Both the position numbers and the translations under genes were made by a program. The notes under the pieces were generated by a model. That model worked only from the letters and a program-made list of their open reading frames with translations, was not told where the DNA came from and made no database searches. DNA of 64,000 nt from Naegleria gruberi (taxonomy: Eukaryota), in assembly GCA_000004985.1 (NCBI GenBank), contig GG738855.1; one strand, written 5' to 3'. This document shows, in pieces, positions 3,753 to 58,708 of this stretch. Position 1 is the stretch's first letter. Every line of letters starts with the position of its first letter.

Positions 3753-6474
3753 CTAATTGAGAGCAAAACCTCCTCCTAAATGTACCCTAGTTCCTTCTCC
3801 AGGAGTAACTTTGTAAGATGGTTCTCCGGCCATTTCCTCACCTCCTAAAGTTTGTGATTGAGATCGTTCCTTTTCCAAGTAGAAATCCTTCTTTGTTTGT
3901 AAGAATTTCTTCTTGGTATCTTTGAGTTCTCTGTTAAGTCTTTCCTTTTCATACTCTTGTTGTTTATCCTTGTATTGTAAAAAGTTAAGTTCAGAAGCAA
4001 GAGATTGAATTTGAGAATTCTTCTTTCTCAAAGTCTCTTGATAAATATTAAGCTGTTCTGCAACTTCTGGACCTGGTTGTCTTGAAAGGATAGCCTTGAG
4101 CTTTTTGTTCATTTCCTCCTTTTCTTGAACAATTAAATCCTTTTCCATAACTTCCTCAGTTTTGGCAATCAATCTCTTTTGGAGCGTTTGGGTTTTAAGA
4201 ACAAGTTCATATTGTGTAGGATCGCTTCCTTCTAACTTTCTCCATCTGTGAACGTTCATTGGATTTTGAAGTTCTTCTGAGAGAGCTTTGACCTTGTTTC
4301 TTTCTTCGAGTAATTGTTTCTTCAACTCATGATTCTCTCTTTGGAATTCCTTAATCTTGTAAATGTGCTTCTTCAAGACTTGTAATTGTCTTGTGAGATC
4401 TTTGATTTTCAGTTTGAGAATCTTGATGTCACCCAACCGTTCTCTATATTGAATAGCTCCCTTGTCTAGTGTACTGTTTTGAAGTTGAATCTTTTCATAG
4501 AGGAGTGCAATTTCGTCGTTTCTTCTAATCAACTGAGTACCTAGAACATCTCTTTCACTAACAACAGCATCATAGTCCTTTTGTTGTTTTCTTCTTTCAT
4601 TATCAGCTTGCTTAATGATTTGAGTGAGCCTATAGTTTTCAGACTCGTGAGATTTGATGATTCTTTCCTGTTCCTTTTGCTTTTCTTCCAACAATTTAAT
4701 TTCTTCCTTCATCTTTTCCTTCTTCTTCAGGATTTGTTTAGCATTGTATGTTTCATCAACGAGAGCCTTTTCTCTACTGGTAATTTCATCCTTAAGTTGA
4801 GTAATTTGTTGTTCCATAATCTTGAACTGTTTCTTCATTTCTTCTGCCTCTTCGTGAGCCGCAATAAGAGCCTTACTCTTAGTGTTTCTTTCGCTTCTCA
4901 CTGATTCATATAGAGATTGTTGAGTCTTCAATTTTTCTTGAAGTTCAATAATCTTCTTTTGAAGCTCATTCAATTCAACAGTCTTGATTCTTACTTCTTC
5001 CAGAGCTTGTCTGTATTTCAGGTCAGAATCTGAAGCCTCCGAAGCATATCTTTCTCTTTCCTTCTCCAGTGTGTAGGTAAGTTGTCTGTACTTTTCTGTT
5101 TGCTTCCTTTCAGCAACAATTTCAGCTTTCAATACCTTTGAATTTCCTTCCAGAATTTTAATGTTATCCTGTTTCTTAGTCTTTTCCTTTTTCATGAGAA
5201 CCAAACTCTTACTGAGGTAATTTCTTTCTGCTTTGATTTTTTCTCCAGCTTCCAATTGTTGATCTTTTTGATTATTTAATTCCTCTATGACCTTGTTCAA
5301 ATGGATAATTTCTTGATTGAGAGATTCTTTAGATCTTTCAATTTCTTCCTTTTCATTTTCAACAATCTTCTTCTTTTGTTGGAGAGTTTGATAGCTTTGA
5401 TGCCATTGATTCTTTTCATCAATAACTTCTTTAACTTTTGTTTCCAACAACTTCTTTTCGAAATTCAATGTTTGATCGTTAGCCTTCAACCTAGAAACTT
5501 CAGCAATTAGTCCAACTCTTTCCTTTTCATCTGTATCAATGGTAGACTTGTATTGCTCTATTCTCTTTTGGAGAGAATTAATAGTTTGTTCCATATCCTT
5601 GATAACCTTTTCCGAATCTGTCACTCTTGTTTGTTCCTTCTTAATATTCTCATCTTTCTTTAAGAGTTCTTGAGCTTTAGCTGTGAGAAGTTGTTTCGAT
5701 TCTTTAAGTTCCTTTTCTGATTTTTCCTTTTGCTTGATTGTTTGATCTAACTTGTTCTTTGTTTCGTTGAGCTGTTCATTGATACTTTCAATAACAGTTA
5801 GCAATTTCTTCTTTTCTTGATTTACATCATTGATCTGTAAGAATAGTAGGTTATTAGAATTAATACTAGTACAATTTTTTGAAACTAACCTGAATTTGCA
5901 TATTCGATAATTCATTGTTAAGGGAAATTACTTGAGCATTTTTCATTTCCTTTTCTCTGGCAAGCTCCTTTTTTACCTTTTCCAACTCTGGTGCAGAGGC
6001 ATCTTGAACTGTATTACCGGTTCCTTGATTTGCAATTTTTGTCAGCTCCGAAATTTCTTTGGTAAGTTTTTGAACAGTTTCCTTAGCTTTGGCTTCTTTT
6101 TCATGTGATGCGTTTACTAGTTTCCATGCTTTATCAATTTCCTTTTTTAAAATTGCGATGGTGTTTTGGTCTTCCTTAGATAAATTAATTGCTGTTTGTA
6201 CCTTGATGGCATTTGCTACTATTTGTTGAGTAAGTTCCTCACATCTCTTCATAAGTCTCTTCTCATTTTCGTGACATCTCAATAAATTACGATGTAATTT
6301 TTCATATTCAATCCTAAAATTTTCCAAATGATCTTTTCCAGCCAATTCCATCAAAACTTCTTGAAAATCTCTTTCAAGTGTTTCAAAGGCTGTTTTGGTC
6401 AAACTAAGGACCATCTTTTCTTGATCATTCTCCTTTCCATCTCCTTGTTGGTTGGTCGAACCATCTGATGACAT
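3753..6474 (-). CDS. CFAP58: CFAP58 (CCDC147) homologue, cilia/flagella-associated coiled-coil protein; 2 exons (6474..5890, 5834..3753), about 888 aa
   Basis: The minus-strand ORFs 5866-6474 and 3753-5915 are joined by a 55-nt intron (about 5835-5889; donor GTTAGT, acceptor TTACAG) and are frame-consistent (585 + 2082 nt). The N-terminus FETLERDFQEVLMELAGKDHLENFRIEYEKLH matches, from memory, the CFAP58 N-terminal signature (FEDLEKDFQEVLTELSG..LEKFRVEYERLH). The C-terminus RQPGPEVAEQLNIYQ...GGGFALN matches RQPGPEAAEQLKLY...GGGF. The whole protein is coiled-coil. Confidence 0.75.
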
Positions 6475-6791
6475 TTTTTAAAACTATTTTAAAGTAGTTT
6501 TTGGCGCGAAAAATTACAGTTTTATCTGTTGGAGCTTCTACAACACTCAAGAAGAAGAATAACAACCAACACGAATAATACCACGATATGTAATTTTAAT
6601 AAGTCAGCCATGACATAATTTCATCATCAGCAAACATTTAATAATAATCAAGCCTCCACAAGAAACTGAATATAAAACCGTAGTGATAAAGAACAATAAC
6701 TTGAGTTACAAAGATACATGTTATGAATCAATACACCCAAAACACCAAATACTATTAATAAATTAATTGTACATTGTTAGGCGGCAAAAAA

Positions 6792-9553
6792 ATGAGTAAA
6801 TCAGAAGGCTCTGACACAATCCAAGTCTATTGTCGTATTAGACCAGTGAGTGAGAGTCATTGCCAATATTCAATAGAACAAACATTTGATAATGCAGTAC
6901 TACATTTTAAAAAACCAAGATCGGATGAAGCAGGATATATTAATAATACAATTGAAAATTATGAATATAAATACACCGGAATATTTGATCAACAAGTGGA
7001 TCAAGATGAAATATTTGATAGATGTGCTAAGAAATGTGTTCTTAGTGCTTTAGAAGGATATAACTCAACAATTTTTGCTTATGGTCAGTCTGGAAGTGGT
7101 AAAACTTATACAATGACTGGTGGAGATGGAAGCTATGAAAAAAGAGGTATCATTCCTAGAGCTATTTCACTTCTTTTTGAGGAATCGTCGAATGAAGGAA
7201 AACGAGATCGAGAATATACATTTTCAGTTTCATATATGGAAATTTATAAAGGATTTGGATATGATTTATTGAATGATAAAAGAGATTTAATGGATATTAA
7301 GGAATTACCGTAAGTTTAAAATGATGAGGAAATATATTAAAGAAATAATTTAGGAAAGTATCGGCTAGAATTGATACAAACGGAGCTGTTGTTTTCAAAA
7401 ATATTCAAACCTTTCCAACTAAAACAGAAGAGGATGCTTTGGATAAATTATTTATTGGTGATAAAAACAGAGTGTTGAGGTAAGAGATTTAATTTTAGTT
7501 TTGAATTTATTCATTCATTTTCAGTGAAACTATGCTCAATGAGTCCTCTACTCGTTCTCACTGTATATTTACTGTTAATATTGAATCAAAGGAACCTGGA
7601 TCATCAGTTGTAAAATCCTCAAAACTTCACATGGTAGATTTGGCCGGTAGCGAACGGCCTAGTAAGACAAATTCAACAGGCAAAACTCTGGAAGAAGCCA
7701 AGAGTATCAACTTGTCTCTGTATTTTTTGGAACGTTTTATTATGAGTATCAGTGAAGGTAATGACCACATTCCTTGGAGAGATTCATTAATCACCACTGT
7801 CCTTAAAGATAGTATTGGTGGTAATTGTAAAACTATTATGATTTCGACGATTAATCCTTCATATAGACACTTGTCGGAATCTGTTTCAACATGTAAATTT
7901 TCAATGAGAGTAGCTAGCATTAAACAAAATGCTGTCATTAACGAGAAAGTCGATCCATATGTTCAAATTAGAAAACTGAAAAAGAAAGTTGAGGAATTGG
8001 AGGAAGAACTGAAATATTATAGAGGTGAAGGGCAGAAAAGAGAAGCACTGGATGGAAACGAAAAAGCAATTATTAAGGAGAGAGTGGATGAATTTTTGGA
8101 TGATTTGGATAGAGACAGTTCTCTGAATTTGGGAGGAGACCATTTGAGAATTAGGGAGGCCTTCTTGGTTTTAAAATCCTATGTTTTGGATCTCAGGAAA
8201 AGGCCAAAGGAAGCTACAGCGTCGAAAGAGAAACCAGTACCTCAAAAAACGAAACCTCAGCCAATTCAGCAAGCCCCTCCACAACAACAAGTTGCTCTCT
8301 CAGAAGATATCCAAGAGAAGCTCAAAAACTTATCGGTTGCCATTGAGCTCAGAGATATTGAAATTGATATCCTTGTCTCCATGTTAAATAAGAAACAAAA
8401 GAACATGTCTGAAGTATCGATACAGACAGAAATTAGCCCATCGAGTCAAATTGTTACAACCCTTCCACCACCATCACCCAAGAGATCAATGCTTCATACT
8501 TTCACAAACGGAAATACATCTTCTATGGAATCAATAGCAAGTATGCATAGAAGTGTAGAACGAAAACCTATTCAAGATATTGTGACAAAAGAAGTTATTA
8601 AGGAAAGAATTCGAGAGAAGGAAAAATCCATTCTTTCCCAAACAGGTGATAATGCACCAAAATTCTCCAATGAAAAGATTGCCATCCTAGCCGATGCAAC
8701 TGGAATGAGGAGAAGAGCAGAAGCGTTCGAGTTATTTAGACAAAAATATAGAAATTACAATGTCATTGAAAAGAACAAGGAAGCTTTGGGAGAAAAGATT
8801 GCCTTTGCAAAGGAGATGGCTAGAGATATCAATGATAAGAGATCTGTCATTGAAGTGTTAAAGAACAGACTCATTCAACTAAGAACTGAAAGAGCTGCTC
8901 AAAATCTTGTAAATAAGAATGCTGAAACAGATGAAGAATTCCCAGAAGAAATTGAACTTAAAAAAGAGTTGTTAGCTGAAAAGGATAGACATCAAGATCA
9001 ATGTAATCAACTCAAGGAATTAAAGAAGGAAATTGAACACTTGAAGAGAGTATTGGAAATGAGCAGAGTGAGACTTCAACAAGATTTTGAAAATTGGTAC
9101 AAGACAACTAATCCATACCCAGAAGAAGATTCACCAGAAGAATCCATATCCTCTCAAGTTTCTGCAACAATACGAAGTAATATTTCACAACAGTATAGTA
9201 ATAGCAGTATTCCTGTTTCTACACTCAGTTTTGATTCCTCCTCTTCTCCAATATCTTCAACTCTTTCCACAACTACCTCCTCCTCTTCTAGGCCAACTGT
9301 AAAACAAGCTTGGGGAGTTGATAGTATTTCACCTAAAAACAATGTCAGCTCTAATTTAATGACACTCCGAAACAATAATCAACTACCACCACAGCAACAG
9401 CAACAAGGATTTAGTGAAGACAATCCATTCTTTAAGAAACTGAAAGAACATGTTGAACAGTCCTCAACTCTCTCAAGTGCAGCTGTTAATTCATCTGCCA
9501 ATACTAATTCCTCAAAGAGAGTTTCACTTCTCCAACAAGCTTACAAACTTTAA
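6792..9553 (+). CDS. kinesin-9B (KIF6-like) N-terminal motor kinesin; 3 exons (6792..7309, 7354..7479, 7525..9553)
   Basis: Start ATG at 6792 (aaaaaaATGagtaaa); the ORF-track start at 6774 is a TTG. The introns are 7310-7353 (GTAAGT..TAG) and 7480-7524 (GTAAGA..TCAG); splicing restores the motif GDKNRVLRETMLNESSTRSHCIF. The P-loop is FAYGQSGSGKTYTMTGG..GIIPRAI and switch II is LHMVDLAGSERPSKT. The family signature INLSLYFLERFIMSI is the kinesin-9 LSL..LE pattern; HIPWRDSLIT and the C-terminal RVRLQQDFENWY match, from memory, KIF6 (INLSLHYLEQVIIAL; QKEFEVWW). The C-terminal half is coiled-coil and S/Q-rich. Confidence 0.75.
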
Positions 9554-12337: not shown

Positions 12338-14459
12338 TTATTTCATACTTTTTAATAGTTCATGAATGGAAGGAAGAGCAGATACTTGATTAGTTGATGG
12401 TGATGATTGATTCAGTGGGGAAGGTGGTGGTTGCATTCGCATCATCATGTTTGCTGAAGAAGTTGTGTTGGTTGGTGATTGTCTATTATTGTGAGATAAA
12501 GGAGTTGAATCACTAGAACTACTTCTTGAATAATTCTCCAAAGATGAGAAGGAAGTTGTAGAATAAATATTATTACTACCTGAATGAGCTAGTTGCATAG
12601 ATTGGTCAGCTGCACGTGGAATTTGGAATTGACCATTATTAACAGTTTGAATGTATGGATTGGATTTAAGTGAGGCAGGTGAGGATGAATTGAGTAGTGG
12701 TTGAGCTGGTGGTGTTGAAACATAACTAGATTGTGGTGAAACTTCACTACAATTCTGAGAGGAATAAGATGAAGATAAAAGAGATGAATCAACTCTTTTA
12801 ACTCTTTTAGCATTGTCAATATTGCTTTCATGTTCTCGTTTTCTATTAATCTTAGTATCACCAGCACTGGCATCATCAGAATTAGATTCCTCCTCTTCAA
12901 TGTCACTTCCACTCGATTTTTGAAGTAAATTTCTATCCATTGATAAATTTGCTGAACCAGATGGTCGCTTGATATTTTCAATTTCCGTATCAACTTTTTC
13001 CAATTGAGTTGTAAACTTTTTCTGAGATAGTGGGTTTGATGAATTGTTTTTCATATTTTCCAGAATCTTATCCCTCTTCATGTACAAACTCTTTAATTTT
13101 CTGTACGGCCATCTGTTGATAATTTAATAAACAACAATATAGTGTGAATTAAATAATTGATAGAATTAATTATTGTCATTATTCGAAATTAATACTAACC
13201 TTGGAATATTGAAATGTCTACATAATTTCTTCATTGATGTACTACTAATTCCGATTGCTTCACATGCTTGTTCTAATTTCCAATCAAAGTAAATAGCCAA
13301 TTCTTTAAATTTAATTGTTGTCATGGTAATGTGAGCTTGATGACCATTTGTTCTTTTAGCATTCGATGATGTTGCTTCATTATTCGATGAAACTGGACTA
13401 GATTTTCCACTAGGTGTTGAAGAAGGCACATTAAATGTTGATGATTGTGGTCTTTCACTTGGAGAGCTATTTCCATGCAATGATTGTGATGCAACAACAT
13501 GTTGTTGTGGTTGTGAGAAAGAATTAGATGGACTGGTCAAATTGGATGTTGGTACAGGAGTTGGAAGTGTGGCAAAGGGTCTATTAGATGGGGGTGATGT
13601 TGGAGAGGAATTATACATGTGATTGTTATTCAATGCATGGTTTCTTGTTGAATGCATGTGATGATTGAATACTTGCTGTTGGGCACTAGGATGCACATCA
13701 TAGTTATTGTACTCGTGATGATAATGATATTCGTTATTTACATGTTGTTGCTGCTGTCTGTCCAATCTGTTGGATGATCCAGTCACGGAGGATGACTTTT
13801 CGAAAAATTGAGCTGGTTGTCTGTGGTCGAAGGACATGGAAGAATTATTGGCCATTGTGTGGTGGTGGTCATACTGTTGGCCATGTGGTGGAGATAAAGA
13901 ATACATGTGACCGTGGTCTGGAGCATGGTGATGATGTGAATTCATTCCATACCCAGATTGATGAGAATGATGATGAGGAGGTTGAATTCTCTGATACGAC
14001 ATCATATTGTTATTATCTGCACTACTAATACTTGTCAACTGTGAAGGTGATGGTAGTGAGTCGAAGGTTTCTCTAAGGGGAGGCAGACTTTCTCTGATAG
14101 AAGCTACTGCTACTGTTGGTATTGGCACTGGTAGTAGGTGGTGGTGGTTGTGATGTTGTTATATTGTCTTGGTGTGCTATAACAATTGATAAAGTTGATG
14201 ATCTTCTTAATGATTCCAAGTTATCATAAGCTTGTTCTTTTTTCTTCATAAAGTTTTCATGAGGTTGGTGTTCTGTGCTTTCTATTTGTTGGTTGTGCGT
14301 TGTGTTCGCCGACAATAATCCCTCTGCTGATGTTGTTATTAAGGCAGCGGCTTGTGTTGTTGTTGTTGGTGAATTTTGCTCACTCACAGTGTTAGGAGTT
14401 GTCTTATTAGGATCGGTTGAGGGAAAAGATTTACTTATTGTTGGTACCTCAACGCTCAT
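12338..14459 (-). CDS. RWP-RK domain transcription factor; at least 2 exons (..13200 and 13112..12338), 5' structure unresolved
   Basis: Minus-strand ORFs 13166-14128 and 12338-13087 are joined by an 87-nt intron (about 13113-13199; GTTAGT..CAACAG). Splicing creates the motif ELAIYFDWKLEQACEAIGISSTSMKKLCRHFNIPRWPYRKLKSL, the RWP-RK consensus (..KLCR..GI.RWPyRK). The upstream region carries poly-H, poly-Q and N-rich tracts. A further ORF (14073-14459, start MSVEVPT) abuts in another frame near 14100-14130, so there is either an additional small intron or a frameshift. The M at 14128 in the ORF track is a GTG artefact. Confidence 0.6.
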
Positions 14460-26107: not shown

Positions 26108-28343
26108 ATGAATGGCGTCAAAAAAATGCTCGCATCAACCTCAACAGCTTTCCCTCAATCATCATCATTCGATGGTAACAATAATGAGGAAAATTCAAAG
26201 CAATCTTTTCGGAAGTTGAGAATTGAGGCACCACCAATAGTACAATATGAATTTGATAGAAGAGGAGGAGGAAGTACATCAAAACAACTTCCTCCACTAT
26301 TAGCAAATCAACCAAGAACCATTTCCAATGGTGATATTCTCTCCACTCCAACTAACAGGAGGTTATCTCCCGTGCTTAAGAGATCGATGAGTGCATCACC
26401 ATCAACAGAAATGGGACTTGAATCACCGGTCCTTCTAATTTCTAAACCTTTTGAAAGTGAAAATGATGGCTTTGAGCCGGGAGAGGCATCAGAAGCTGAA
26501 TTGTTGGAAAGAGGTGCACTCTTTTATTCACCACTTTTCATTTAGGAACAGATTAACAGTAGGACCTGAGATTAGGTCCCCAACACCTCCAAGGCTAAAG
26601 AGAGGGTATTCAAATAGATCTCTCAAAGAAATACCTACAGAATTACTCCCAACCATTGTCTCAGTATCATCACCAACATCATCTAATCTTTCACCCTCTC
26701 CACTATTAGAGGAAGTCAGAAGACAACAAGGTGACCTTTCCATTCCTATTTCTCCTTCTTCAAACTCATCACTTCCTCCAACACCACCATCAATTAAAGG
26801 AAGACTCTCGAAACAACCTTCATTTACAGATCCTAATGCTAGAAGAATGAAAAGTTCGGGAAGTTCAACTGGTACCTTTCTTACGGAAGTTTCCTTAAAG
26901 TCTATGGATAGTTTTTTCATTCCAAGCCCTCCTAAACAAGTTCATTTACTTCCAGATTTTCTCTTTTCCCCCCAAACAGAAAATATTGAAAATTGCAGAT
27001 TTCCTTCTGATTTTAATAATCCTCAATTTCCAAGAAATAGACCCCTAAATCCAAAATATGTGTTGAACAAGACTCTCATACTATATTTCCCTTCTCTCTT
27101 CTCAGATTACACTAATTCAGAACATAGAATTCAGTTTAATGACTTATTTTTGACAGAGCAAAATCAATCGATACTAATTGACTCTTTTTGGTGGTTTTTC
27201 TTGACTGTATTTTCAAAGGATTATCTTTTAAGAAAAGCAGTTCAATATTACGAGTACATGATAGAGAAGGAGTTGGAGAAGAGAAAAGAAAAGAATAACT
27301 TTTTCCTAAGAAAGGAACAACACAAAGTTTACAAAGAGAAAGGAGAGAATTGGGCAAACCAAGTTTATAAGAAACTTTTAGGAGAATTACCTGCCATTGA
27401 AAATAGAATTTCTAATAATTATGCAGAGCTTGTTGTTAAATTTATTACTCACAGATCTTACACCATCAAGACAAATATACAACTTGATTTGGATGATATA
27501 TTTATTGAGGTTATTTCGAAATCTGTTTTTCTTGCTTATGGGTTAAATTTTCCAGATTGTCATGAAATATTCGAAACAGAAGCGTTTCAAGCAAGAGTAG
27601 CGAGACAATTTCAATTGTGGTGTTTTGGTGTCTGTACCATTAATTTACCATTTCTTGACACCTTATGGATGTTTAAAATGGAGTTGAAATCACCTCCCTA
27701 TGTAAGGGATGAGCATTCTCTATCTCCAAAGCAAAGATTCAAGAGAGCTATCCAAGCTGTCAGAGTTGGTTACAATGAAAGTATTGTTAAAACAAAGGAA
27801 GTGAGAGAAGAATTAGAAAAGGCATTGGATAACCTTGAATATAATGATTATTCACCAGCCTACAATTTATTTGAGATGTTTTTTGAAGATGAATCTGAAT
27901 TTGCAGCAATTAGAAAACAAAACAAAAGGTTGCAAATTATGGAGGCGTTCACTTCTGGAGCTACTCTTAAAGAAGAAGAATTGAATGAAATTATTGAATG
28001 TGACGATAGGGATGAAGAGCTATTTATTGAACTTCAAATATTAAAAGAAAAGAAGGAAAAGAACATATTTGCCAAACCTCTTCCTTCTAAAGATATCAAG
28101 GAAATAGCTGCTGTCAGAGAGAAAGCTTGGTATGAAATGGGTGAAGGAACAACTAAAACGCTTGTTACAAATATTAAACAAGTGAAAACACTAGGAACCT
28201 TTAAAACCTATTCACACAGCAAAAAATCAAGCCCTCTAGTTTCTCAATATTTGACCTTACTTCGTCACAATAAGGCAACTCAAAGAAAGCAAGAACGATT
28301 TGAAAAGAGAATGGAATTAAGAAAAAATTACATGAAGGAATAG
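26108..28343 (+). CDS. hypothetical protein, S/P-rich N-terminal half and structured C-terminal half; internal frame transition unresolved
   Basis: ORFs 26108-26545 and 26451-28343 overlap in different frames around 26500-26560, so there is either a very small intron or a 1-nt assembly error. The N-terminal half is low complexity with many SP/TP sites; the C-terminal 400 aa is non-repetitive (e.g. QLWCFGVCTINLPFLDTLWMF) with no recognised family. Confidence 0.4.
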
Positions 28344-35300: not shown

Positions 35301-36391
35301 ATGAGTGATTTGGATGCTGGAGAGGACATGTTTGATGATTTTTTAAATTCCCGTCTTGAGGATGATGAAACCATAGGCCATGATCAATCTGTTACTGATG
35401 CTATCAATGATGATGAATTTGAGAAATTATTGAATGAATCTGAGACAGAGACTGTACAAAATGAACCGGAAAAGGAATCAATCAATGTTGATTTATCATC
35501 AGCAACAACAATAACTGCATCCACTGAATCCGTCATTGAAAAGAAGGAAGAACAAGTTAAAGATGATGAGGAAGTCATTGAATTTTCGTGGAGCGATGAA
35601 GACTATAGCAAAGACGAAACCGATCAAGTTAATCAAAATAATGCAATTTCAGAAATTAAAATTCAACAAGAAAAACCAGTGACAATTGAAAAGTCAGAAA
35701 ATAGGGAACTCTAATTTAACAAATAATGCTAGTAATAGTACTACTACTGATCAGGGAACATCAGTTAAAAGTGAGGAAATAATTGAAACTAGAATTAGTG
35801 TAATGATTTCCGACGTTTTGAATAGATTTGGAAAAGTAATTGACATTGATAGTAGATCGGAAGCTATTGAGAATAGAATTAAACATTTGAAAGAAGAAGA
35901 GGTAGAGTCTGAGTATAGTTTTGGAAAATTAAAAGGTAGTATTCAGAGAAAATTGGTAGTTCTCGAATGTGCTGTAGAGAATTTGTGTGTTCTTGTGGAA
36001 AAGAATGTACAAAGAAAATTGAAATTGAGAGAATCTAAACAGGTTTTGAAAGAGCAATTGAGAGCAAACATTGAAAAATACTCTGAAAAGTGCACTCAAT
36101 TAGATGAACAGAAAGAGAAATACTCCAAGATGGAAAATTTATGGGAAAAGGATAGAAAGAACCTTGTAGATCTCATTGAAAAATTGAAGCAACAAGTAGA
36201 AAGCAAGGATCCTGAAAATGAATTCCTCAAAACAATGAAAATTCCAGAAGCTCCTAAAGCAACAGACTCTGAAGACAATACTCTTTCTAACCTTACTAAA
36301 TCTCTCCTATCACTTCCAGAAGCTTGGAAATCCTCTAATCCATCCGATTCTAATCCCCAATCTTCCAACACATCCTCTAGCTCTTCAGCCG
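35301..36391 (+). CDS. hypothetical acidic/coiled-coil protein, truncated by assembly gap (possibly the 5' part of the downstream acyltransferase gene)
   Basis: The ATG ORF 35301-35714 (acidic, D/E-rich) overlaps ORF 35686-36391 (a TTG artefact start, coiled-coil, Ser-rich end) in another frame at an A-rich stretch near 35690-35714. The frame is open into the N-run at 36392. Confidence 0.35.
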
Positions 36392-36903
36392 NNNNNNNNN
36401 NNNNNNNNNNNNNNNNNNNNNNNNNNNNNNNNNNNNNNNNNNNNNNNNNNNNNNNNNNNNNNNNNNNNNNNNNNNNNNNNNNNNNNNNNNNNNNNNNNNN
36501 NNNNNNNNNNNNNNNNNNNNNNNNNNNNNNNNNNNNNNNNNNNNNNNNNNNNNNNNNNNNNNNNNNNNNNNNNNNNNNNNNNNNNNNNNNNNNNNNNNNN
36601 NNNNNNNNNNNNNNNNNNNNNNNNNNNNNNNNNNNNNNNNNNNNNNNNNNNNNNNNNNNNNNNNNNNNNNNNNNNNNNNNNNNNNNNNNNNNNNNNNNNN
36701 NNNNNNNNNNNNNNNNNNNNNNNNNNNNNNNNNNNNNNNNNNNNNNNNNNNNNNNNNNNNNNNNNNNNNNNNNNNNNNNNNNNNNNNNNNNNNNNNNNNN
36801 NNNNNNNNNNNNNNNNNNNNNNNNNNNNNNNNNNNNNNNNNNNNNNNNNNNNNNNNNNNNNNNNNNNNNNNNNNNNNNNNNNNNNNNNNNNNNNNNNNNN
36901 NNN
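36392..36903. other. assembly gap (512 N)
   Basis: A run of n from 36392 to 36903. ORF-track proteins composed of X across this region are artefacts. Confidence 1.
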
Positions 36904-37614
36904 TTGCATAAATATTTGGGATTTGATTCCAAGAGGACATTGATGGGAAAGATTTTCCGTACAGCAACTGCAATTGTTGTTAAATCAAATCCATACTGGA
37001 AACTCTCTGTTAAACATGTCAACAAGAATAGTTTACCAACACAAGAGAAGAAAACTATTTTTGTTTGCAACCATCAAAGTAATATGGATCCATTTGCATT
37101 AATTTGTGGTGCTTTACCAATTGAAACTAAATGGGTTTCAAAGAGTGATTTGTTTGCAATTCCATTTGCTGGAAGAATGATGTCAAATGCCGGAGATGTT
37201 CCAATTGTTTTCAAGAGCAAGAAAATGGATGATATGAGTACTGACAGAGATTCTGTTAAATCTGCCATGAATAAGCTCAAAGAACATTTACGTAATGATA
37301 ATGCTGTATTTTTCTTCCCTGAAGGAAGAAGATCTTCCACACCTGACCAACTTTTGGAATGGAAGAAGGGTGCCTCAATTATGAGTTTAGAAACAGGAGC
37401 TGACATTGTTCCAATTGGTTTGTATGGTACATTCACTATGTGGGGTATTGAAGAAGCTCTTCCAACACCAGGTAAAGCAGCAATTGTTGTCGGAGAACCA
37501 ATTAGTGTTCAAGGAATGACTTTGGAAAAGGATGTTGAAACTCTCAATGAAAAAACAAGAGAAGCTGTTGCTGAATTGTTGCAAAAAGCTATGGCTGAAT
37601 ATGCTAAAATGTAA
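36904..37614 (+). CDS. 1-acylglycerol-3-phosphate O-acyltransferase (LPAAT/AGPAT family) catalytic domain, 3' part after gap
   Basis: Immediately after the gap the frame encodes the acyltransferase motif I IFVCNHQSNMDPF (NHxxxxD), motif III FFPEGRRSST (FPEG-R) and motif IV IVPIGLYGT. It ends at TAA 37612-37614. Length and frame across the gap are unknown. Confidence 0.6.
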   Translation: MHKYLGFDSKRTLMGKIFRTATAIVVKSNPYWKLSVKHVNKNSLPTQEKKTIFVCNHQSNMDPFALICGALPIETKWVSKSDLFAIPFAGRMMSNAGDVPIVFKSKKMDDMSTDRDSVKSAMNKLKEHLRNDNAVFFFPEGRRSSTPDQLLEWKKGASIMSLETGADIVPIGLYGTFTMWGIEEALPTPGKAAIVVGEPISVQGMTLEKDVETLNEKTREAVAELLQKAMAEYAKM

Positions 37615-37799
37615 AGAACCTTAATCAATTTACACAGTAAATTTCCATACAATAGAATGATATAATATCTCGTCACTCTTTATTTGTACCTCAACATGGT
37701 TACATTTTCTCAAAGAGAGTGGAAAACCGATTAGAACTGACCAGAAGATGTCGAGAAGTTTTCCCGCCAATTTAACAACAAAGCAAATAAAATACTAAA

Positions 37800-39648
37800 A
37801 TGCCATCCAGCACAACAACAACCGTGGAGAACATTATCAAAGTCAAAACCTTTGCTCATGCTTTGAATCAACAGGACACGGATTTTGCAATATTATTTAG
37901 ACATGTATATTGTTTATTTAATAGAACACTGTGTTACTCACATGATACTGTTTGTCCCAAAGGTTTCTTCATTACAGATGCTGTTGGCAAAAGTATTAAT
38001 TTGTTTTTCGTGTTGGATACACCAAGATTAGCTTCCGAAGCTAACTTACTCATTGAATCATCTAACCATCTCCTTCATGGATTTGTAAATATCATGGTTA
38101 GGATTACATCACAGAGTTTCACTTCTAATAGTATTAATAATAGTTGTAATATGAACATTCAACACAACAATACAAATAATAATAACTCATTACGGCCCAG
38201 CAACGACAGAGTTGCCATTGTTCCATTCATCGACGAAGATCATCAACAACAGGATCCTTCAATGAAACTTTTCGAAAACTCAATCTTTTCTACTGACATT
38301 AGTCTGAAAACGTTTTGTGAAGAGTATATTAGAGCTGTTAATAACAAGGCAGCTGTTCAACACATTCTGGGATTCTTCAGAGAAATTTCAGAATCTATTG
38401 GCTCTTCTGATCGATTCAAGATTGAAATCTTTAAGAATTGCACCTGCAGATCATTTGTTGGTGATTTTTATACAGTTTCTAGAGATATACTGAGGTATGG
38501 TTGAAATTAATTTCAATTTTATTATAATATTGCTTTCTATTAGCATTTGTAAGGTTGCATCTTTTGATAAATCTGCAAAGAAAGGATTATCTAAAGAACA
38601 AGTTGATTACGTAAATAGTATCAAACAAGATAGGCCATTCTATACCTTAATGTTAAAGATGGATCGTCTTATTAAAGATGTTGTAAATCCTCTATTCGAA
38701 TTTATGAAGTTTTGTCATAGAAAAGCAGATTGTTCTATATCACATCTCCTTTACAAGTATTGTATCAAGTTCAAAATAACCTCAGTTTCCCCTCAACAAA
38801 AGAATTCAAATTCTACATCTACAGGTCCTTACATGTCTGAATCTGAGGAGAGCGAATCTCCTACTGTTTACATACCAGATGTACAAACAGAAGTGAGAGA
38901 ATTAACCTTTCCAAAGAGCTCTCATCTCTACAAACAACTTCCTTCAGATCCAAACACAAGAAAATCACAAATAGAAAAAGATGTATTCAGGTTGGGAGCC
39001 CTCTTTTTAGCCTTTGTTACTGGATCTAAGGAAATTGGAGAAAATACAGTCGACTCTGTTTCTGAAATGTTAAAGCAGTTGAGAATGAGTGTAGATTATT
39101 TGAGACAAACACATGTTCAATTTGAAAATATGCTCATAACCAAAAAGTGTGGAGATGATACGAAAATCTACCTTATGAGTGAGAGGTTGGCTCATTTAAC
39201 AGCCCTTCATTATAGCCTTTCAACATTTGAAAAACTGGTTTCTGAAATGGTGGAGCAAAAAACATGTACCTTGAAACAAATGTTACTAATGGTTGAAAAG
39301 TCTGCCATGGACAAGATGATAGAGAATTTCCGTGACCAGTCATTTGAAGAGAAAATGACCAGTTGTGAACGAATCTCAAACTCAGTCCAGGCAGTATTGG
39401 GAAAGGATTCAGAAAAAAAGAAACAGATTAATGAAAGAAGTAGGATGATTTTGGGAGATTGTACAAACTCGAGCTTTATAACACCAGACTCACCCATGAC
39501 AATTTCTACAACTCCAACCCACAAGAGGAAATTTTCTGATACAACTGTTCAGTATTTCTGTTCACAGAGCAAGATACCTGCAAATAAGGTTGTAAAACGA
39601 GAAAACTTAGAGAATTATCCAAGAAGTGCAATAATAAATAGAAAATAA
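37800..39648 (+). CDS. hypothetical protein; 2 exons (37800..38494, 38544..39648), about 600 aa
   Basis: ATG at 37800 (ctaaaATGcca). A 49-nt intron (GTATGG at 38495; acceptor TATTAG at 38543) joins ORF 37800-38504 to ORF 38497-39648 in frame (..DILR|SICKVASFDKS..). No family is recognised. Confidence 0.35.
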
Positions 39649-42441: not shown

Positions 42442-42791
42442 GTTGTTGGTATTTTTTAAAAAAATTCAATGTGTTTACAACATGAAGAATAAAAACCAAA
42501 TCATCAGGATTGAATCTTTTAAATAGAATTGGTAATAAACTAATTTATTCTTGTTAGATGATTAATACTTCAATTTTATGGTGGACATTGTTGGGTGCTG
42601 TACAGCCATCTGACACCAGCAGAGCTTGCTTCAACAAAAGCCGTGAAGAGAGAAGCAGCACAAATATCCCTGTCTTTTTAAAAATATTGTTGTGATGACC
42701 CAAAAATACTTCATTTGCCGCTTGTATTTGGCGCCTTTCGAAAACAACTACAAAAAAAAGAGTTTGAAAAGAGCAAGCCTTTGTATTCAAG

Positions 42792-45486: not shown

Positions 45487-46508
45487 TTTTTTTGAATTTA
45501 TTTGATGGCTCTGTTATTATTAAATTAATCGAATTATGCACGAATACTAGTATTAAAAATAATTTAAATTAATATATTTATTGTACATGTTTCTACTTCT
45601 TCATAGAAGCTGATGAAGCAGGTTTTGGTCCCTTTTTCAAATCTTTTTCCTCTTTTTCTAATTGGAATTCAAAAAATTGGAGACAAAACACACAAACATG
45701 CACTTTCTGATACAGTAAGGCTGGAGAAACAGGTTTAATTTTCATTCCCCAACTATTTCCGATTATTTGTCATCTATAAAGTACTAAAAACAAACCTTGA
45801 TCGAAGTTTCAAAACTGAATTGTATGAAATTGCTCCGGGCAGTGATTCTACATAAAATTCTTGTTCGCAAAGTTTGCATCTCCATTTCTTTTGTAACCCT
45901 TGAAAGACCTTATAGTCATTAGGGGATAATTCTGTCTGCAGATCCTTCTTTCCTGACATGTTTTTTCAAATTCCGATGCTAAATTCCTTAATCCTCTCGT
46001 TGTTGATGAAGAACAAATTGTGTTACTAGTGAAATACAACTGGTTGATTTTTTTTGAAAACTTGATGATTGAACAGCCTCGTAAATATTGAGGCGGTAAA
46101 CGGTTTTAAATAAAACCTCTCATGACGTAAATTATTTAAATAAGAAGTGAATGTGTGTTTGATGTTTAATAACAACCTTGTATCAAGAGTTGAAGATTTG
46201 GATTCAATTGGATAGCACAAATAAACTTTCAAGGTTTTTTAAGGGAAGAGGCAGACAAAACCGCCCAAAGACTATCTATTGCCGTTATGTTTGCCGCCAA
46301 AATTTGAATGCAAGAACGTTAGGAATTGTTTTCAATTTCACAAAACAATAGCAAAAAAAATTACATCAACTCCCCACACCACAGAGGATCTGCTGTAGTT
46401 TTCTGTACACAACTAATTACTAACAAACAAACTAATATACAAGGAGTCTGGGGTTATTAATTTAATCACACACATTCTTTATCTTTATACATAGAATACA
46501 ATACGAAA

Positions 46509-49500: not shown

Positions 49501-49781
49501 CATTTGAAGCTGAAGAAGTTTGTTCTGTCTCCACACCAGACTCTGATAATATGGAAGATGTTGAAGCTGATTCCATTAGTGTGTCTAGTAACAAGGAAAA
49601 TGTTGATGACAATAACTTATCACCAATAGCAATCGTACCAACTGTAAAATCTATCAACATTCCAATGAAGAAAGTGAGCTCTGAACCTACTATTGTAAAG
49701 AAGCCAATTGTTAAAAAACCAACTATTACTAAGGTCTTGAAAAATAGTGCTCCAAATTTTGGGGTTTCTTCTTTCAGATAA
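46509..49781 (+). CDS. kinesin-5 (BimC/Eg5 family) bipolar mitotic kinesin; 2 exons (46509..46870, 46919..49781), about 1074 aa
   Basis: A 48-nt intron (GTAAGT at 46871; acceptor TTACAG at 46918) splits the P-loop IFAYGQTSSGKTYT|MEG. Motor motifs: VQVLLRCRPPNDKE, SSRSHCI, LNLVDLAGSENIGRSG, HIPYRESKLTRILQDSLGG. The stalk is a long coiled-coil, and the tail has a BimC-box-like TGTTPQKKKRK Cdk site. Kinesin-5 assignment is based on motor similarity to Eg5 ([20 protein letters not shown]..GIIPR) and the overall architecture. Confidence 0.8.
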
Positions 49782-49891: not shown

Positions 49892-52256
49892 TTATTGTCT
49901 CCTATTTACACTCTTCTTCACCTTGGAAGCTTTCTTATAGGCAAGATAATAGTTAAGACTCTCTGGGTCTTCTTGTTGAAGTCTTTCAATTTGGAGCTTT
50001 TCGAATTTTTCACCCTCATCCAACACATCTTCTTTTCCTTCCTGATCTAATCCTCTGTATCTGGAACTTCTAGATGATTGAGTTGGTCTATTGTCTTCTT
50101 CTTCCATGTACCTTTCGTCGTAATAGGCTTGGAAATCAGCTACAAGAGATTGTCTCAAAGTTTCTAAGGCCTTCTCAAGATAATCAATTTCGGATTTCAA
50201 CATCTTTCTTTCCTCAAAGGATTGCTTGTATGTTTCCTTTCTTTCCTTAATGCTTTGGAAGAATAGCATTTCTTCTTCATCCACAATATCATCTCCCACT
50301 TTATAATAATTATAGCGAACTTTAAAACAATTTCAACAACTTACAATGTGCATTTTCAACTTGTTTCTTATCAATCTTGGTCTTTAAATTATCAATATCT
50401 GCCTTGATATCATTAAGCCTTTGGGTTACATTCTTGAAGAGAGATTTCTTTTCCTTCAAGGAAGCAGAATTTTCCTTAATACTTTCACTTAATTGTTTTC
50501 CAACTGTGTGTTTAAACTCCTCAAAGGCATCGTTTCTGGGCATGATAATCTTGCTGGCAGTTTTTGACCTTTCAGTATCAGGAACAACAGCTGAGGTAGA
50601 TCTTTCTTCCCTTGCTGATAAAACTGTAGCTTTCTTTGTTTTCTTTTGGAAATCAACATTTGGTTTTGCCTCTCCAAATCCAAAACCAGTCTTACTTTCA
50701 ACTTCACCAACTCCATTTTCCTCATGAATTTTCTCTTCATGGATTTTTCCTGCAAAATTGGAAGCTGGAGCTGTTTGCTGTTTTTCTCTGTTAGAAGCTG
50801 AATGAATAGACTCTGGTTCTGTGAAAGAAGAGGCCTCTTTCAACAAGGTTTTGAATTGTACGAATATTTCCTTAATTCTTCTGATGTTTTTAATTTCCAA
50901 CTCTTCCACTTCTCCATTTACATAGCTTCTAATTTCCTTTCTCAATTCAACCTTTTGTTCCTCGGTGTATGGGTCATAATTTGCTTGATTGATTCCTCTC
51001 AATTGATCGTGCATGGATAGTTCTTGTTTCAGCTCTTTAATTTCCTTTTCATACTTTTTAATGAGAGCATCTGGGTTCATATGAACATTAATCATTGCTT
51101 CGTTGGAAACTCTCATCATTCTAGTGGCGAATTTAAGCGTACCAATTGTTTCTTCAATATGTTGTTCTTCTCCCCATACGTTCGCAATCATCAAAGTTTT
51201 GCAATTACCTCCTAAAGAATCCTTTAAGAAATAGGTAAGCTTGGATTGTCTGTAAGGGATGTGTTCTCTTGTTGGATTTCCCAATGCAATAACAACCTGT
51301 TCCAAAAACGAAAGTGACTTGTTGATGTATTTTGCTTCAGTGAGAACAAGTCCACTAGAGTGAGTTTTAGAAACTCTTTCACTACCAGCCAAGTCAACCA
51401 AATTCAACTTGGATTGAACGGTTTGACCTTCTGATTCAACTCTACTTCTACTTTCCAAATACATTGTAAAAACACAGTGAGATCTTGTTGAGGCCTTGTT
51501 CAATTGATGTTCACAGATAGCTCTGTTTGTTTCACCTTCAAAAAGCATTGATAAGGCTTCTTCCTCACTATTAACAATGTGACATGACAATCCTCTAACC
51601 ATGATAGTTCCCTTATTATCCTCCATAATAACCATATTGTCATCGTATGCATCATTTTTAGCTTTTGCCAATTGAGTGTCACTAATATCAGATAATAAAT
51701 CAAATAATTGTTCATTATAGATTTCCATATAAGAAACTCGTAATGTAAATGATTTTTCAGGATAATTTGACATTTCGGCAAACACTTGTTGAATTGCTCT
51801 TGGTATTAAACCTCTATTCTTATAATTGTTGGCAGCTCCAATCATGGTGTAGGTCTTACCTTTTTGATTGTTTCAATAATTAGAAATTATAAACTCAAAA
51901 TACAAACCTGAACCAGTTTGACCATAGGCCATCACAGTTCCATTATAACCTTCAAGGAATGATTTTGTAATATCATAACAACATTCATTAAATACTGTAT
52001 CTTGTGATACATTATGAAGTGTTTTATCAAATTTGAATGAATAATCTTCCTTCTTTGTTTCCAAATAATTTACATTTCCCGATTGTTTTCCAGATCTTCC
52101 CTTATTCTTAATCTCAATGCTCTTTTTTGATTCATCAAGAACAATCACATCCTGAGCAAAGAAAGCAGTCGGTCTAAATTATCATTGTATTAATAAATTT
52201 ATAAAATTCTTCACGTACCTCGTTCTGACACAAACTTGTACTGGGGTGTTGACCAT
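49892..52256 (-). CDS. kinesin-9A (KIF9/KLP1-like, flagellar central-pair kinesin); 4 exons (52256..52219, 52173..51908, 51859..50345, 50298..49892), about 741 aa
   Basis: Exon 1 encodes MVNTPVQVCVRTR; the introns are 45, 48 and 46 nt (GTACGT, GTTTGT, GTAAGT donors), frame-checked against ORFs 51873-52148, 50322-51845 and 49892-50299. Matches to KIF9 from memory: DYSFKFDKTLHNVSQDTVFNECCYDITKSFLEGYNGTVMAYGQTGSG|KTYTMIGAANNYKNRGLIPRAIQQVF (DWSFKLDGVLHDASQDLVYETVAKDVVSQALDGYNGTIMCYGQTGAGKTYTMMGATENYKHRGILPRALQQVF), RVSYMEIYNEQLFDLLS, NLVDLAGSERVSKT, INKSLSFLEQVVIALG (identical to the KIF9 INKSLSFLEQ signature) and HIPYRQSKLTYFLKDSLGGNC. Confidence 0.75.
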
Positions 52257-52389
52257 TTTGTTTTTTTAAAATTTAATTTACAGTTTTAAAATTTGGCGCC
52301 ATTTCAAATTGTTTCAAAAAAAGCAAATAAGTATTATTACATCGAAGAACAAATAGAAAGGTGCTTTGACAGATACAACATTGGTTTTA

Positions 52390-57624: not shown

Positions 57625-58708
57625 ATGACTGGAGAAGACCCACAATATGAAGACATCTTGAATAACTTAACGAGCGCCATGACCCCACATAGTCTTGCGA
57701 CTGGAGGTGGAGGTTTTTTAGGAGGATATGGAATGGTTAGTACACCACTTCCTACAAGTGTTTCTACACCTTTACCACCATCGACACCAGTGCCAGGTAC
57801 ACCAATGATGGCACATTCATCCTATTCTTCTCCTTATACACCAATTCCTGTACAAACACCAATGCCGACATCAACACCTCTTCCCTACGGAACACCTTTA
57901 CCTTATGGTATGAATACATCAAGAGAAATGGGACCTCCAACAACATCAACACCAATGCCTAATCAATATGCCTCTACACCTAGTAATCAAGTCCCTGAAT
58001 TGGACAGTGGAGGTATTATTCCAGTTATTCAGTAAGTAATAGTATTAATTTTAATGTGGTGCTAACAAATTTTGTGATGATCAATATGTTATCCTAATTT
58101 ATTGTTATTAGAAATGTTGTTTCTACGGTAAATCTTGCTTGCGAATTGAAATTAAAGATGATTGCTTTGCACGCAAGAAATGCTGAATATAATCCTAAAC
58201 GTTTTGCTGCTGTGATTATGCGTATTCGTGAACCAAAAACTACAGCTCTGATTTTCCAAAGTGGTAAAATGGTTGTGACCGTAAGTAATAATTTATTTCT
58301 AATTTATATAATTGTCACATTATTTAGGGTGCTAAATCTGAGGAAGAATCTAGATTAGCTGCTAGAAAGTATGCTCGTATTATTCAAAAATTGGGTTTTA
58401 ATGCTAAATTTACAGAATTTAAAATTCAAAATATTGTCGGAAGTTGTGATGTTGGATTTCCAGTTCGTCTTGAAGGTTTGAACTGTCAACATCACAGTTA
58501 TGCAAGTTACGAACCTGAAATTTTCCCTGGTCTCATTTACAGAATGGTTGACCCAAAGGTTGTCTTGTTGATCTTCGTTTCAGGAAAGATTGTTCTTACT
58601 GGTGCCAAACATAGAGATACTATTTATCAAGCTTTCCAAAATATTTATCCTGTTTTGAGAGATTTCAAGAAGGAAGATAATGTACAACCAATAGCAGAGG
58701 AACAATAA
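57625..58708 (+). CDS. TBP: TATA-box-binding protein (TBP); 3 exons (57625..58031, 58112..58271, 58328..58708)
   Basis: The introns are 58032-58111 (GTAAGT..TTAG) and 58272-58327 (GTAAGT..TTAG), frame-checked. The conserved core [56 protein letters not shown]|[51 protein letters not shown]...[34 protein letters not shown] is nearly identical to the canonical TBP repeat domain. The N-terminal 135 aa is a P/T/S-rich low-complexity region. aaaaaaATG start context. Confidence 0.85.

Follow-up and report, generated by a model that had tools for sequence, protein, structure and literature searches.

In vertebrate multiciliated cells, E2F4/5 act together with Multicilin (MCIDAS) or GEMC1 to govern the amplification of centrioles as well as cilia genes, the reviewed targets being regulators such as FOXJ1 and RFX and basal-body duplication genes, and E2F-type sites are thereby used outside the cell cycle for a basal-body and cilium programme (PMC12183034). 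Naegleria is reported to lack RFX, FOXJ1 and XAP5, and no cilia-gene transcription factor is known for it (PMC12183034). N. gruberi encodes E2F, DEL and RB homologues (NgruE2F, NgruDEL and NgruRB in the supplement of PMC4862756). We have analyzed a 64-kb stretch of N. gruberi DNA (the window) in which the genes for CFAP58 and kinesin-9B lie head-to-head. The results make it reasonably probable that these two flagellar genes are neighbors by chance, that each has its own compact promoter with an E2F-type box, and that they belong to a dispersed regulon rather than being served by one promoter.

The CFAP58 and kinesin-9B genes

The head-to-head layout of the first-pass annotation, with CFAP58 on the minus strand and kinesin-9B on the plus strand, was confirmed (Table 1). 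The 888-aa product of the two-exon CFAP58 model matched Pfam PF21771 (CFAP58_CC; E 1.3e-58) over residues 388-682 (model positions 10-304 of 306), and aligned collinearly along its full length with PDB 8glv_LP from an axoneme structure (residues 24-868 against 13-858; E 8.5e-191), with PDB 9fqr and 8j07 matching at 1e-158 or better. The domain match and the full-length alignment to axonemal CFAP58 chains bear out the assigned identity, and on its sequence the protein belongs to the FAP58/FAP189/MBO2 type and is presumably an axonemal coiled-coil protein.

The three-exon model of the KIF6-like gene encodes 890 aa, with an N-terminal motor (PF00225, 6.7e-92) and a KIF9-type C-terminal domain (PF23735, 2.8e-33), and is 100% identical to the NCBI entry "kinesin-9 [Naegleria gruberi]" except for an exon missing from the public model, which bears out the N. 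gruberi origin of the window. In an NJ tree built on 405 columns, the protein fell in the KIF6/9B clade (96% bootstrap), apart from the second kinesin-9 of the window (KIF9), which was placed in the 9A clade (100% bootstrap). All its named animal matches were KIF6, and the score against PDB KIF9 was 261 bits, compared with 526 bits for the 9A paralogue. The gene is thus a kinesin-9B, as had been proposed, and from the literature on this family its function is presumably flagellar. The CFAP58 N terminus is conserved from codon 2 on in W. magna and the Naegleria-like L003, and the conservation of the N termini in relatives supports both ATG assignments. All box distances given below are counted to the ATG rather than to the transcription start.

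Table 1. Coordinates of the gene models and promoter boxes in the window
Feature	Position	Strand	Details
CFAP58 exon 2	3753-5834	minus	stop codon included; ORF and splice junction from sequence
CFAP58 intron	5835-5889	minus	55 nt, GT..AG; frame restored, junction collinear with orthologues
CFAP58 exon 1	5890-6474	minus	ATG at 6474
Inter-ATG spacer	6475-6791		317 bp, 29% GC
Box 1	6498-6513		TTTTTGGCGCGAAAAA; 24-39 bp upstream of CFAP58 ATG
Second motif	6514-6523	plus	TTACAGTTTT; adjoins box 1 directly
Box 2	6780-6791	plus	GGCGGCAAAAAA; immediately 5' of kinesin-9B ATG; minus strand reads TTGCCGC
Kinesin-9B (KIF6-like) exon 1	6792-7309	plus	start ATG 6792
Kinesin-9B exon 2	7354-7479	plus	42 aa of motor domain; absent from public model
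Kinesin-9B exon 3	7525-9553	plus	stop codon included; encodes KIF9-type C-terminal domain
Orphan-gene box	37761-37770	gene plus	TTCCCGCCAA, -30 to -39; gene 37800-39648
ARMC9 box	42714-42735	plus	TTTGCCGC plus TTTGGCGCC, -78 to -57; ATG 42792
Mitotic kinesin-5 box	46291-46300		TTGCCGCCAA, ~210 bp upstream of ATG 46509
Kinesin-9A/KIF9 box	52278-52300	gene minus	TTACAGTTTT then TTTGGCGCC; box at -36 to -44; ATG 52256
Inner-arm dynein IC140/DNAI3 box	63356-63365	gene minus	TTGGCGGGAA, -25 to -34; ATG 63331

An E2F-type box upstream of flagellar genes

The spacer between the two ATGs had been suggested to carry short direct repeats that might act as a cis element. The string quoted as a repeat, CAACACGAATAATACCACGATATG, occurs once in the spacer (at 6567), with no further copy at up to 9 mismatches. 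The longest exact direct repeat is of 8 nt, a length reached by 91% of dinucleotide-preserving shuffles, and shuffled sequence holds slightly more repeated 6- to 8-mers than the spacer does. Direct repeats are therefore no more frequent than expected. The comparison that the first-pass annotation had proposed, between the spacer and the sequences upstream of the ARMC9, KIF9 and dynein intermediate chain genes, did yield a shared motif; it is an E2F-type GC box and not the suggested repeats.

In box 1, two E2F-type sites overlap in inverted orientation, with TTTGGCGC on the plus strand and TTTCGCGC on the minus strand. The sites of CFAP58 (6500-6511) and of the kinesin (6780-6787) are ~270 bp apart. 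Box 2 is a weaker variant (GGCGGC) that stands 7-12 bp before the kinesin-9B ATG, and because it directly precedes the ATG it is probably part of the 5' UTR.

The consensus TTTSGCGC has four matches at three loci in the 64 kb, against 0.49 expected, and none of 100 shuffles reached four; each of the three loci precedes a flagellar gene (CFAP58, ARMC9 or KIF9). Relaxed forms of the box precede kinesin-9B and dynein IC140. For the relaxed pattern TTSSCGS there were 14 matches against 6.5 expected, a number that no shuffle attained; none of them falls inside a long ORF, and six of the ten loci are no farther than 80 bp from one of the five flagellar ATGs. An unbiased k-mer scan of five 120-bp upstream regions ranked TTGGCG first (four of the five regions, p ~1e-7) and TTTGGCGC second. 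The motif was first spotted by eye at CFAP58, and the other genes constitute an independent test; all five certain flagellar genes of the window carry the box, 7-78 bp before their ATGs. The FWWh-domain gene at 26108 lacks one. The motif that adjoins box 1, TTACAGTTTT, has two exact copies in the window, both next to a GGCGC box, and of 17 promoter boxes, 4 have TTACAG no more than 25 bp away, each of them belonging to a flagellar gene (p ~5e-4).

Conservation of the boxes and of the gene layout

In Willaertia, N. fowleri and two Naegleria-like metagenome contigs, the promoters of orthologues have the box at the corresponding position. The CFAP58 box is found at -33 to -36 in N. gruberi, W. 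magna and L003, where it is the sole contiguous invariant block of the alignment; the kinesin-9B box at -11 to -14 in N. gruberi and L002, the orthologous position of the latter reading TTGGCGCCAAAAAAATG; and the KIF9 box at -44 to -49 in N. gruberi and N. fowleri, which has TTTTGGCGGAAAAA at -38 to -51. The kinesin-5 box is present in three taxa, with paired boxes conserved upstream in N. fowleri and L007, and a box also precedes the W. magna DNA-polymerase B-subunit gene. No box was found in the 64-bp spacer of W. magna kinesin-9B, within 150 bp of the ATG of W. magna Rad51, or at either CFAP58 paralogue of Acrasis. When the window and ~100 kb of related loci were pooled, with orthologues that are not independent and gene classes assigned by ourselves, a box within 150 bp of the ATG was present at 10 of 13 flagellar genes, at 3 of 5 genes of mitosis or replication and at 1 of the 47 remaining genes (Fisher p = 4e-8); the one boxed gene of the last class has an 83-bp spacer in common with the DNA-polymerase subunit gene. 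Its presence at kinesin-5 and at a DNA-polymerase subunit gene shows that the box is not confined to flagellar genes.

A reading in which both the adjacency and the motif are accidental, with no common regulation, could appeal to the high gene density, under which about a quarter of neighboring pairs are expected to be divergent, and to the small sample. The shuffle controls for TTTSGCGC and TTSSCGS, the first rank of TTGGCG among k-mers, the positional conservation across species in three gene families and the pooled Fisher test leave it highly improbable.

The first-pass annotation had proposed a bidirectional promoter shared by CFAP58 and kinesin-9B. In its developed form, the spacer would be one nucleosome-free regulatory unit, both genes would be driven by the palindromic box 1 and the adjacent TTACAG, and the layout itself would give co-induction. 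Only 317 bp separate the ATGs, box 1, with its two inverted sites, is symmetrical by nature, and the kinesin's own box is the weaker one, immediately before the ATG. Moreover, the AATTACAG(TTTT)ATCTGT beside box 1 recurs ~20 bp upstream of the kinesin box of L002, and because it keeps its orientation relative to the kinesin there, it hints at kinesin regulatory sequence reaching box 1. CFAP58 and kinesin-9B are neighbors in W. magna too, though the two loci have no flanking gene in common. Nevertheless, the divergent layout is lost in relatives: the genes are in tandem in W. magna and unlinked in L003, where CFAP58 has a different upstream neighbor 78 bp away, and in Acrasis kona, where neither CFAP58 paralogue adjoins a kinesin. 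The upstream spacers of these orthologues measure 66 bp (W. magna CFAP58), 78 bp (L003 CFAP58) and 64 bp (W. magna kinesin-9B), and promoters of such compact size appear to be enough for them. In the relatives each gene retains its own box at its own distance, and in the divergent eIF3c/ARMC9 pair of the window the boxes stand beside the flagellar gene only. The spacing is ordinary in itself, being the norm for the compact N. gruberi genome: at least four other head-to-head pairs in the window, including eIF3c/ARMC9, have 300-450 bp between their ATGs. The two separate gene-proximal boxes argue against one element needed by both genes. Since each gene has its own box and orthologues work from spacers of 64-78 bp outside the divergent layout, a shared promoter is not needed and is probably wrong; we consider its developed form unlikely.

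A candidate regulon and its relation to known systems

The dispersed regulon that we favor would work as follows. Each promoter would be marked by a TTTSGCGC-like box beside its own start codon, and one trans-acting factor would read this promoter-proximal box at many dispersed genes and so bring about their co-induction in the change from amoeba to flagellate. Flagellar genes are not expected to be needed by interphase amoebae, and the box may control their induction in differentiation by activation or by release of repression. That co-induction would come about through such a regulon is suggested by the presence of the same box at the other three flagellar genes of the window, 25-78 bp before their ATGs, and its maintenance at gene-specific distances in other heteroloboseans. 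We infer that the box functions as a cis element, that it is bound by an E2F-family protein and that it controls induction during differentiation. As the factor, an E2F/DP or DEL-type protein seems most likely, and RB might restrain it. The fuller proposal, in which such a factor, possibly gated by RB or by a complex like DREAM, has direct control over a regulon of flagellar and basal-body genes during the transformation, through a TTTGGCGC box 10-80 bp before the ATGs of structural axoneme genes, with sites of this type on mitotic genes as well, is put forward tentatively.

The GC box could also be real and have a reader other than E2F, either a lineage-specific or another GC-box protein, or it could be a plain cell-cycle E2F site with no part in induction during differentiation. 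The flagellar boxes lean to GGCGCC (5 of the 10 sites listed) and the mitotic and replication boxes to GGCGGG, and the restriction of neighboring TTACAG to flagellar boxes suggests a different or additional reader; the boxes of kinesin-5 and the DNA-polymerase subunit gene would suit a cell-cycle site. However, the sites match the E2F consensus base for base, including the overlapping inverted form TTTCGCGCCAAA, which is known from the DHFR promoter. The presence of E2F, DEL and RB in N. gruberi also speaks against another reader, and a box at every certain flagellar gene of the window is hard to explain by cell-cycle marking only. We therefore regard both variants together as rather improbable.

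Compared with the bidirectional promoters of divergent gene pairs, the locus is alike in having two co-functional genes head-to-head and <1 kb apart, and differs in its non-conserved layout, in the proximal box of each gene and in a spacing that is usual in the genome. The X-box/RFX system (with FOXJ1; animals and choanoflagellates) and XAP5 (Chlamydomonas) likewise involve a short promoter-proximal motif common to dispersed cilia genes, the logic of a regulon, but both motif and factor family are different from those proposed for the N. gruberi box; the 64-kb window holds no exact X-box (GTHNYYATRRNAAC), and its 11 one-mismatch matches, against 15.4 expected, include none at a flagellar promoter. 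The sites resemble those of canonical E2F/DP-RB (G1/S) and CDE/CHR DREAM (G2/M) control in their consensus (TTTSGCGC, TTGGCGGGAA), in their position, which is probably promoter-proximal as judged from the ATG, and in their presence on kinesin-5 and the DNA-polymerase B-subunit gene. The N. gruberi kinesin-5 sequence GCCGCC-AAAA-TTTGAA even resembles a CDE followed, after a 4-nt spacer, by a CHR. In contrast to the canonical targets, most genes boxed here are flagellar, and the CHR partner is not consistently present.

The boxes are a candidate for the switch of cilia genes in Naegleria, where none is known. If the proposal is true, an organism without RFX, FOXJ1 and XAP5 would gain its first transcription factor and motif for such genes. 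As in the E2F4/5-Multicilin system, the Naegleria boxes precede flagellar genes in cells that build basal bodies de novo, and mitotic and replication genes are boxed too. Unlike that system, Naegleria is not known to have a Multicilin/GEMC1, RFX or FOXJ1 layer, and the candidate boxes stand directly on genes for axoneme structure and motors (CFAP58, KIF6, KIF9, IC140 and ARMC9). If the proposal holds, the link between the E2F machinery of the cell cycle and ciliogenesis, known to date from vertebrate multiciliated cells, would be either ancient or independently arisen in a distant eukaryote.

Structure and identity of the gene pair

The window is nuclear DNA of N. gruberi with a GC content of about 33%, and the exon models of CFAP58 and kinesin-9B were rebuilt by hand (see table). 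The start codons of both genes are backed by N-termini conserved in relatives, and the divergent layout and the distance between the ATGs are exactly as the first-pass annotation described them. The CFAP58 protein matched the Pfam family CFAP58_CC (1.3e-58) and was collinear end to end with the CFAP58 chains of the Chlamydomonas, bovine and human axoneme structures (E values from 8.5e-191 to 2e-158). The kinesin at 6792 contains a kinesin motor and a KIF9-type C-terminal domain, all of its named animal matches were KIF6, and it is identical to the NCBI entry 'kinesin-9 [Naegleria gruberi]' save for one exon skipped by the public model. This 126-nt exon (7354-7479), missing from the 848-aa public product, encodes 42 motor-domain residues that are conserved in Willaertia magna and in the Naegleria-like contig L002. 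All named matches of the second kinesin-9 of the window were KIF9, and its score against PDB KIF9 was 526 bits vs 261 bits for the 6792 kinesin. In a neighbour-joining tree, the 6792 kinesin was placed in the KIF6/9B clade (96% bootstrap) and the second kinesin in the KIF9/9A clade (100%). These data uphold the calls of CFAP58 and a KIF6-like kinesin-9B, and with such a placement the reservation that the kinesin might prove by phylogeny to be non-flagellar does not apply. Neither CFAP58 nor kinesin-9B/KIF6 of N. fowleri was among the top protein-database matches, which could be due to absent annotation or gene loss; the N. fowleri KIF9 was present, with 80% identity.

The two kinesin-9 paralogues lie in the same 64 kb, and KIF9 is arranged tail-to-tail with the mitotic kinesin-5 gene, a pairing conserved in N. 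fowleri and in the Naegleria sp. contig L007. Five certain flagellar genes (CFAP58, KIF6, ARMC9, KIF9 and IC140/DNAI3) are found among about 32 genes between 3753 and 63331, a density far above the prediction from the few percent of such genes genome-wide. Genes for the TATA-binding protein (TBP) and an RWP-RK transcription factor are also present. A stretch of very low GC content (17%) lies inside an ORF with an acyltransferase domain in its C-terminal part; it contained no tandem repeats and probably represents an insert of low complexity or an intron that was not recognised.

Coordinates of genes, box sites and other features in the window (TTTSGCGC, strict E2F-type pattern; TTSSCGS, relaxed pattern)
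Feature	Position	Strand	Remarks
CFAP58	exons 6474..5890, 5834..3753	minus	888 aa
Kinesin-9B (KIF6)	exons 6792..7309, 7354..7479, 7525..9553	plus	890 aa
Spacer between start codons	6475..6791		317 bp
Kinesin-9A (KIF9)	49892..52256	minus	741 aa
Kinesin-5	46509-49781		mitotic
Kinesin-5 upstream elements	46261-46312
RWP-RK factor gene	13166-14128	minus
TBP gene	57625-58708	plus	core domain 58146-58708
FWWh-domain gene	26108/26451..28343
Orphan gene with its box	37761-39648		ATG 37800; 599 aa, two exons
Low-GC stretch	36001-37000		inside ORF 35686-37614
Box 1	6498-6513		TTTTTGGCGCGAAAAA
TTACAGTTTT element	6514-6523, 52278-52287
TTTSGCGC locus	CFAP58/kinesin spacer
TTTSGCGC locus	57-65 bp before ARMC9 ATG
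TTTSGCGC locus	36-44 bp before KIF9 ATG
TTSSCGS site	25-34 bp before ATG of IC140/DNAI3		TTGGCGGGAA; inner-arm dynein intermediate chain
TTSSCGS site	directly 5' of kinesin-9B ATG		GGCGGCAAAAAA
TTSSCGS site	upstream of ARMC9		second one there
TTSSCGS site	5' of kinesin-5
TTSSCGS site	-30 to -39 of orphan gene		palindromic TTTTCCCGCCAATTT
TTSSCGS site	16 bp past TBP stop codon		no clear meaning
TTSSCGS site	within small 76-codon ORF		no clear meaning

E2F-type boxes at flagellar and mitotic promoters

The box was first noticed by comparing the upstream region of CFAP58 with that of its W. magna orthologue (locus L001), a comparison in which it stands out as GC-rich from AT-rich surroundings. 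Box 1, beside the CFAP58 ATG, is a double site in N. gruberi, in which two inverted sequences matching the E2F consensus TTTSGCGC overlap. A scan of the whole window with this strict pattern gave 4 matches, spread over 3 loci, where 0.49 were expected; 0 of 100 shuffles reached 4, and the relaxed pattern TTSSCGS gave 14 matches vs 6.5 expected, none of them within the long ORFs. When the upstream regions of the five flagellar genes (120 bp each) were scanned for k-mers against tiles of the whole window as background, TTGGCG ranked first (4 of 5 regions, p ~1e-7) and TTTGGCGC second. Because this unbiased scan ranks TTGGCG first, and with the pattern scans alongside it, the comparison of the spacer with the other flagellar upstream regions was positive, the common motif being the E2F-type box and not the short direct repeats that had been proposed as a cis element. 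The string quoted for those repeats occurs once, without an approximate copy; the longest exact repeat in the spacer is 8 nt, a length reached by 91% of dinucleotide-preserving shuffles, and repeated 6- to 8-mers are no commoner than in shuffles, so that the repeats were discarded. An X-box/RFX motif was likewise set aside as the cilia control element here, since none is found in the window.

At orthologous promoters the distance from box to ATG is kept gene by gene. The CFAP58 box is located at -33 to -36 in N. gruberi, W. magna (TTTTATGGCGCCATCA) and the Naegleria-like metagenome contig L003 (TTTTTTGGCGCCATTA), and no other contiguous block is invariant in the alignment of the three upstream regions. 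For kinesin-9B, the N. gruberi box is GGCGGCAAAAAAATG and its counterpart in contig L002 is TTGGCGCCAAAAAAATG; for KIF9, N. gruberi has TTTGGCGCC (at about -44) where N. fowleri has TTTTGGCGGAAAAA (at about -49). At kinesin-5 the boxes come in pairs, with a spacing of about 29 bp in N. fowleri and contig L007 and of 32 bp in N. gruberi; further boxes precede the W. magna DNA-polymerase B-subunit gene (CCCGCCAAAA at about -40) and the Acrasis kona FBF1 gene (TTTGGCGG at -65 to -71). When the loci were pooled and a limit of 150 bp from the ATG was set, 10 of 13 flagellar genes had a box, as did 3 of 5 genes for mitosis or replication and 1 of the 47 remaining genes (Fisher p = 4e-8, in a test whose orthologues are not independent and whose gene classes were assigned by the analyst). 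That single gene is divergent from the polymerase gene, with a spacer of 83 bp common to the two.

Some genes stand outside this pattern. The W. magna kinesin-9B gene, which starts 64 bp past the CFAP58 stop codon (L001 9937-10000), has no box in that spacer; its expression may rely on transcription reading through from the CFAP58 promoter, or else on elements within the coding sequence of CFAP58. In Acrasis, a strict match is missing from both CFAP58 paralogues, and for KIF9 there is a weak ATCCCGC only. No E2F-type box was found anywhere in the 2.5 kb upstream of the FWWh-domain gene at 26108, which may be flagellar and yet lack the motif, given that an FWWh protein of Giardia localises to basal bodies and axonemes (PMC4931700). 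A PDB search gave no match for this gene or for the gene at 52390. Metagenome scans for further heterolobosean loci found none with IC140 and only relatives of 41% identity with the CFAP58 alignment. The orphan gene at 37800 had no Pfam or PDB match, and a set of 1.8 billion representative proteins included only 4 relatives; its palindromic box makes it a candidate for addition to the regulon of the flagellar genes.

The flagellar boxes lean to GGCGCC and the mitotic ones to GGCGGG, and TTACAG occurs within 25 bp of four flagellar boxes (p ~5e-4). GGCGCC with TTACAG vs GGCGGG may be how the two sets are told apart, on numbers too small for a conclusion. The element TTACAGTTTT was observed 4-6 bp from a GGCGC box at three flagellar promoters, two in the window and one in W. 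magna (L001 7273-7282), with an order and orientation relative to the box that vary between promoters, and it does not accompany the boxes of mitotic and replication genes; a partner factor may bind it. No simple inversion fits the differing order of box and TTACAG in N. gruberi and W. magna. In contig L002 (12-25), a palindrome, TTACAGATCTGTAA, precedes the box by about 10 bp.

Upstream of kinesin-5, CCGCCC is followed after about 25 bp by TTTGCCGCC-AAAA-TTTGAA, which resembles the CDE, 4-nt spacer and CHR of the DREAM-type site of animal G2/M genes. This site is about 210 bp from the ATG in N. gruberi vs 56-88 bp in N. fowleri and contig L007.

Head-to-head layout of CFAP58 and kinesin-9B

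The first-pass annotation proposed that the spacer could be a shared bidirectional promoter, and an integrated unit would be in agreement with the symmetry of box 1 and with the recurrence of AATTACAG(TTTT)ATCTGT, found beside box 1, about 20 bp upstream of the kinesin box in contig L002. However, the layout is not kept among relatives. In W. magna the two genes are still neighbours but stand in tandem, CFAP58 first, with 64 bp between them; in L003, a relative about as distant from N. gruberi as N. fowleri is, the gene 78 bp upstream of CFAP58 is a different one, and no kinesin flanks CFAP58; and neither of the two Acrasis CFAP58 paralogues adjoins a kinesin. Evidently, these genes can do with spacers of 64-78 bp. 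Moreover, in the divergent pair eIF3c/ARMC9 (350 bp between ATGs) both boxes lie beside the flagellar gene. The spacer is probably not a shared bidirectional promoter. Divergent pairs whose ATGs are 300-450 bp apart are common in the window, the arrangement of CFAP58 and kinesin-9B is an ordinary one, and the head-to-head layout is probably not functional in itself. Synteny was rejected as proof of a functional pair, given that the window and the W. magna locus have no flanking gene in common besides these two, in a differing orientation, and that the two genes are separated in L003 and Acrasis.

Taken together, the gene identities and the existence of a common motif stand from the original reading, whereas the motif is another one and the shared promoter is improbable.

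Putative control of dispersed flagellar genes

Sequence statistics and conservation point to the E2F-type box as a candidate control element of the flagellar genes. The spacer would then consist of two compact promoters placed back to back, with one box each, and co-induction would result from a single factor that recognises this type of box at many dispersed flagellar genes, the box acting either by activating transcription or by releasing a repressor. Naegleria makes basal bodies and flagella from nothing in about 1 hour, and with such fast de novo building a defined promoter box would make the cilia-gene switch directly testable. The box bears on how cilia genes are jointly switched on in eukaryotes without RFX and FOXJ1. 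According to a 2025 review (PMC12183034), Naegleria lacks RFX, FOXJ1 and XAP5, and its cilia genes must be under the control of other factors that are as yet unknown. The literature searched contained no report of an E2F-type box or other cis element for Naegleria flagellar genes; the two main expression papers, which lie outside that literature, may mention one.

The N. gruberi genome encodes few E2F-family proteins, and candidate factors exist: Medina et al. 2016 list an E2F, a DEL (E2F7/8-like) and an RB protein of N. gruberi in their sequence supplement (PMC4862756). If the link to E2F were true, it would suggest that the transcription machinery of the cell cycle has an old tie to the building of centrioles and cilia, and it would parallel the E2F4/5-Multicilin programme of vertebrate multiciliated cells. 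The occurrence of the box at flagellar as well as mitotic and replication genes in Naegleria resembles the way in which E2F4/5 are reused with Multicilin in those cells (PMC12183034).
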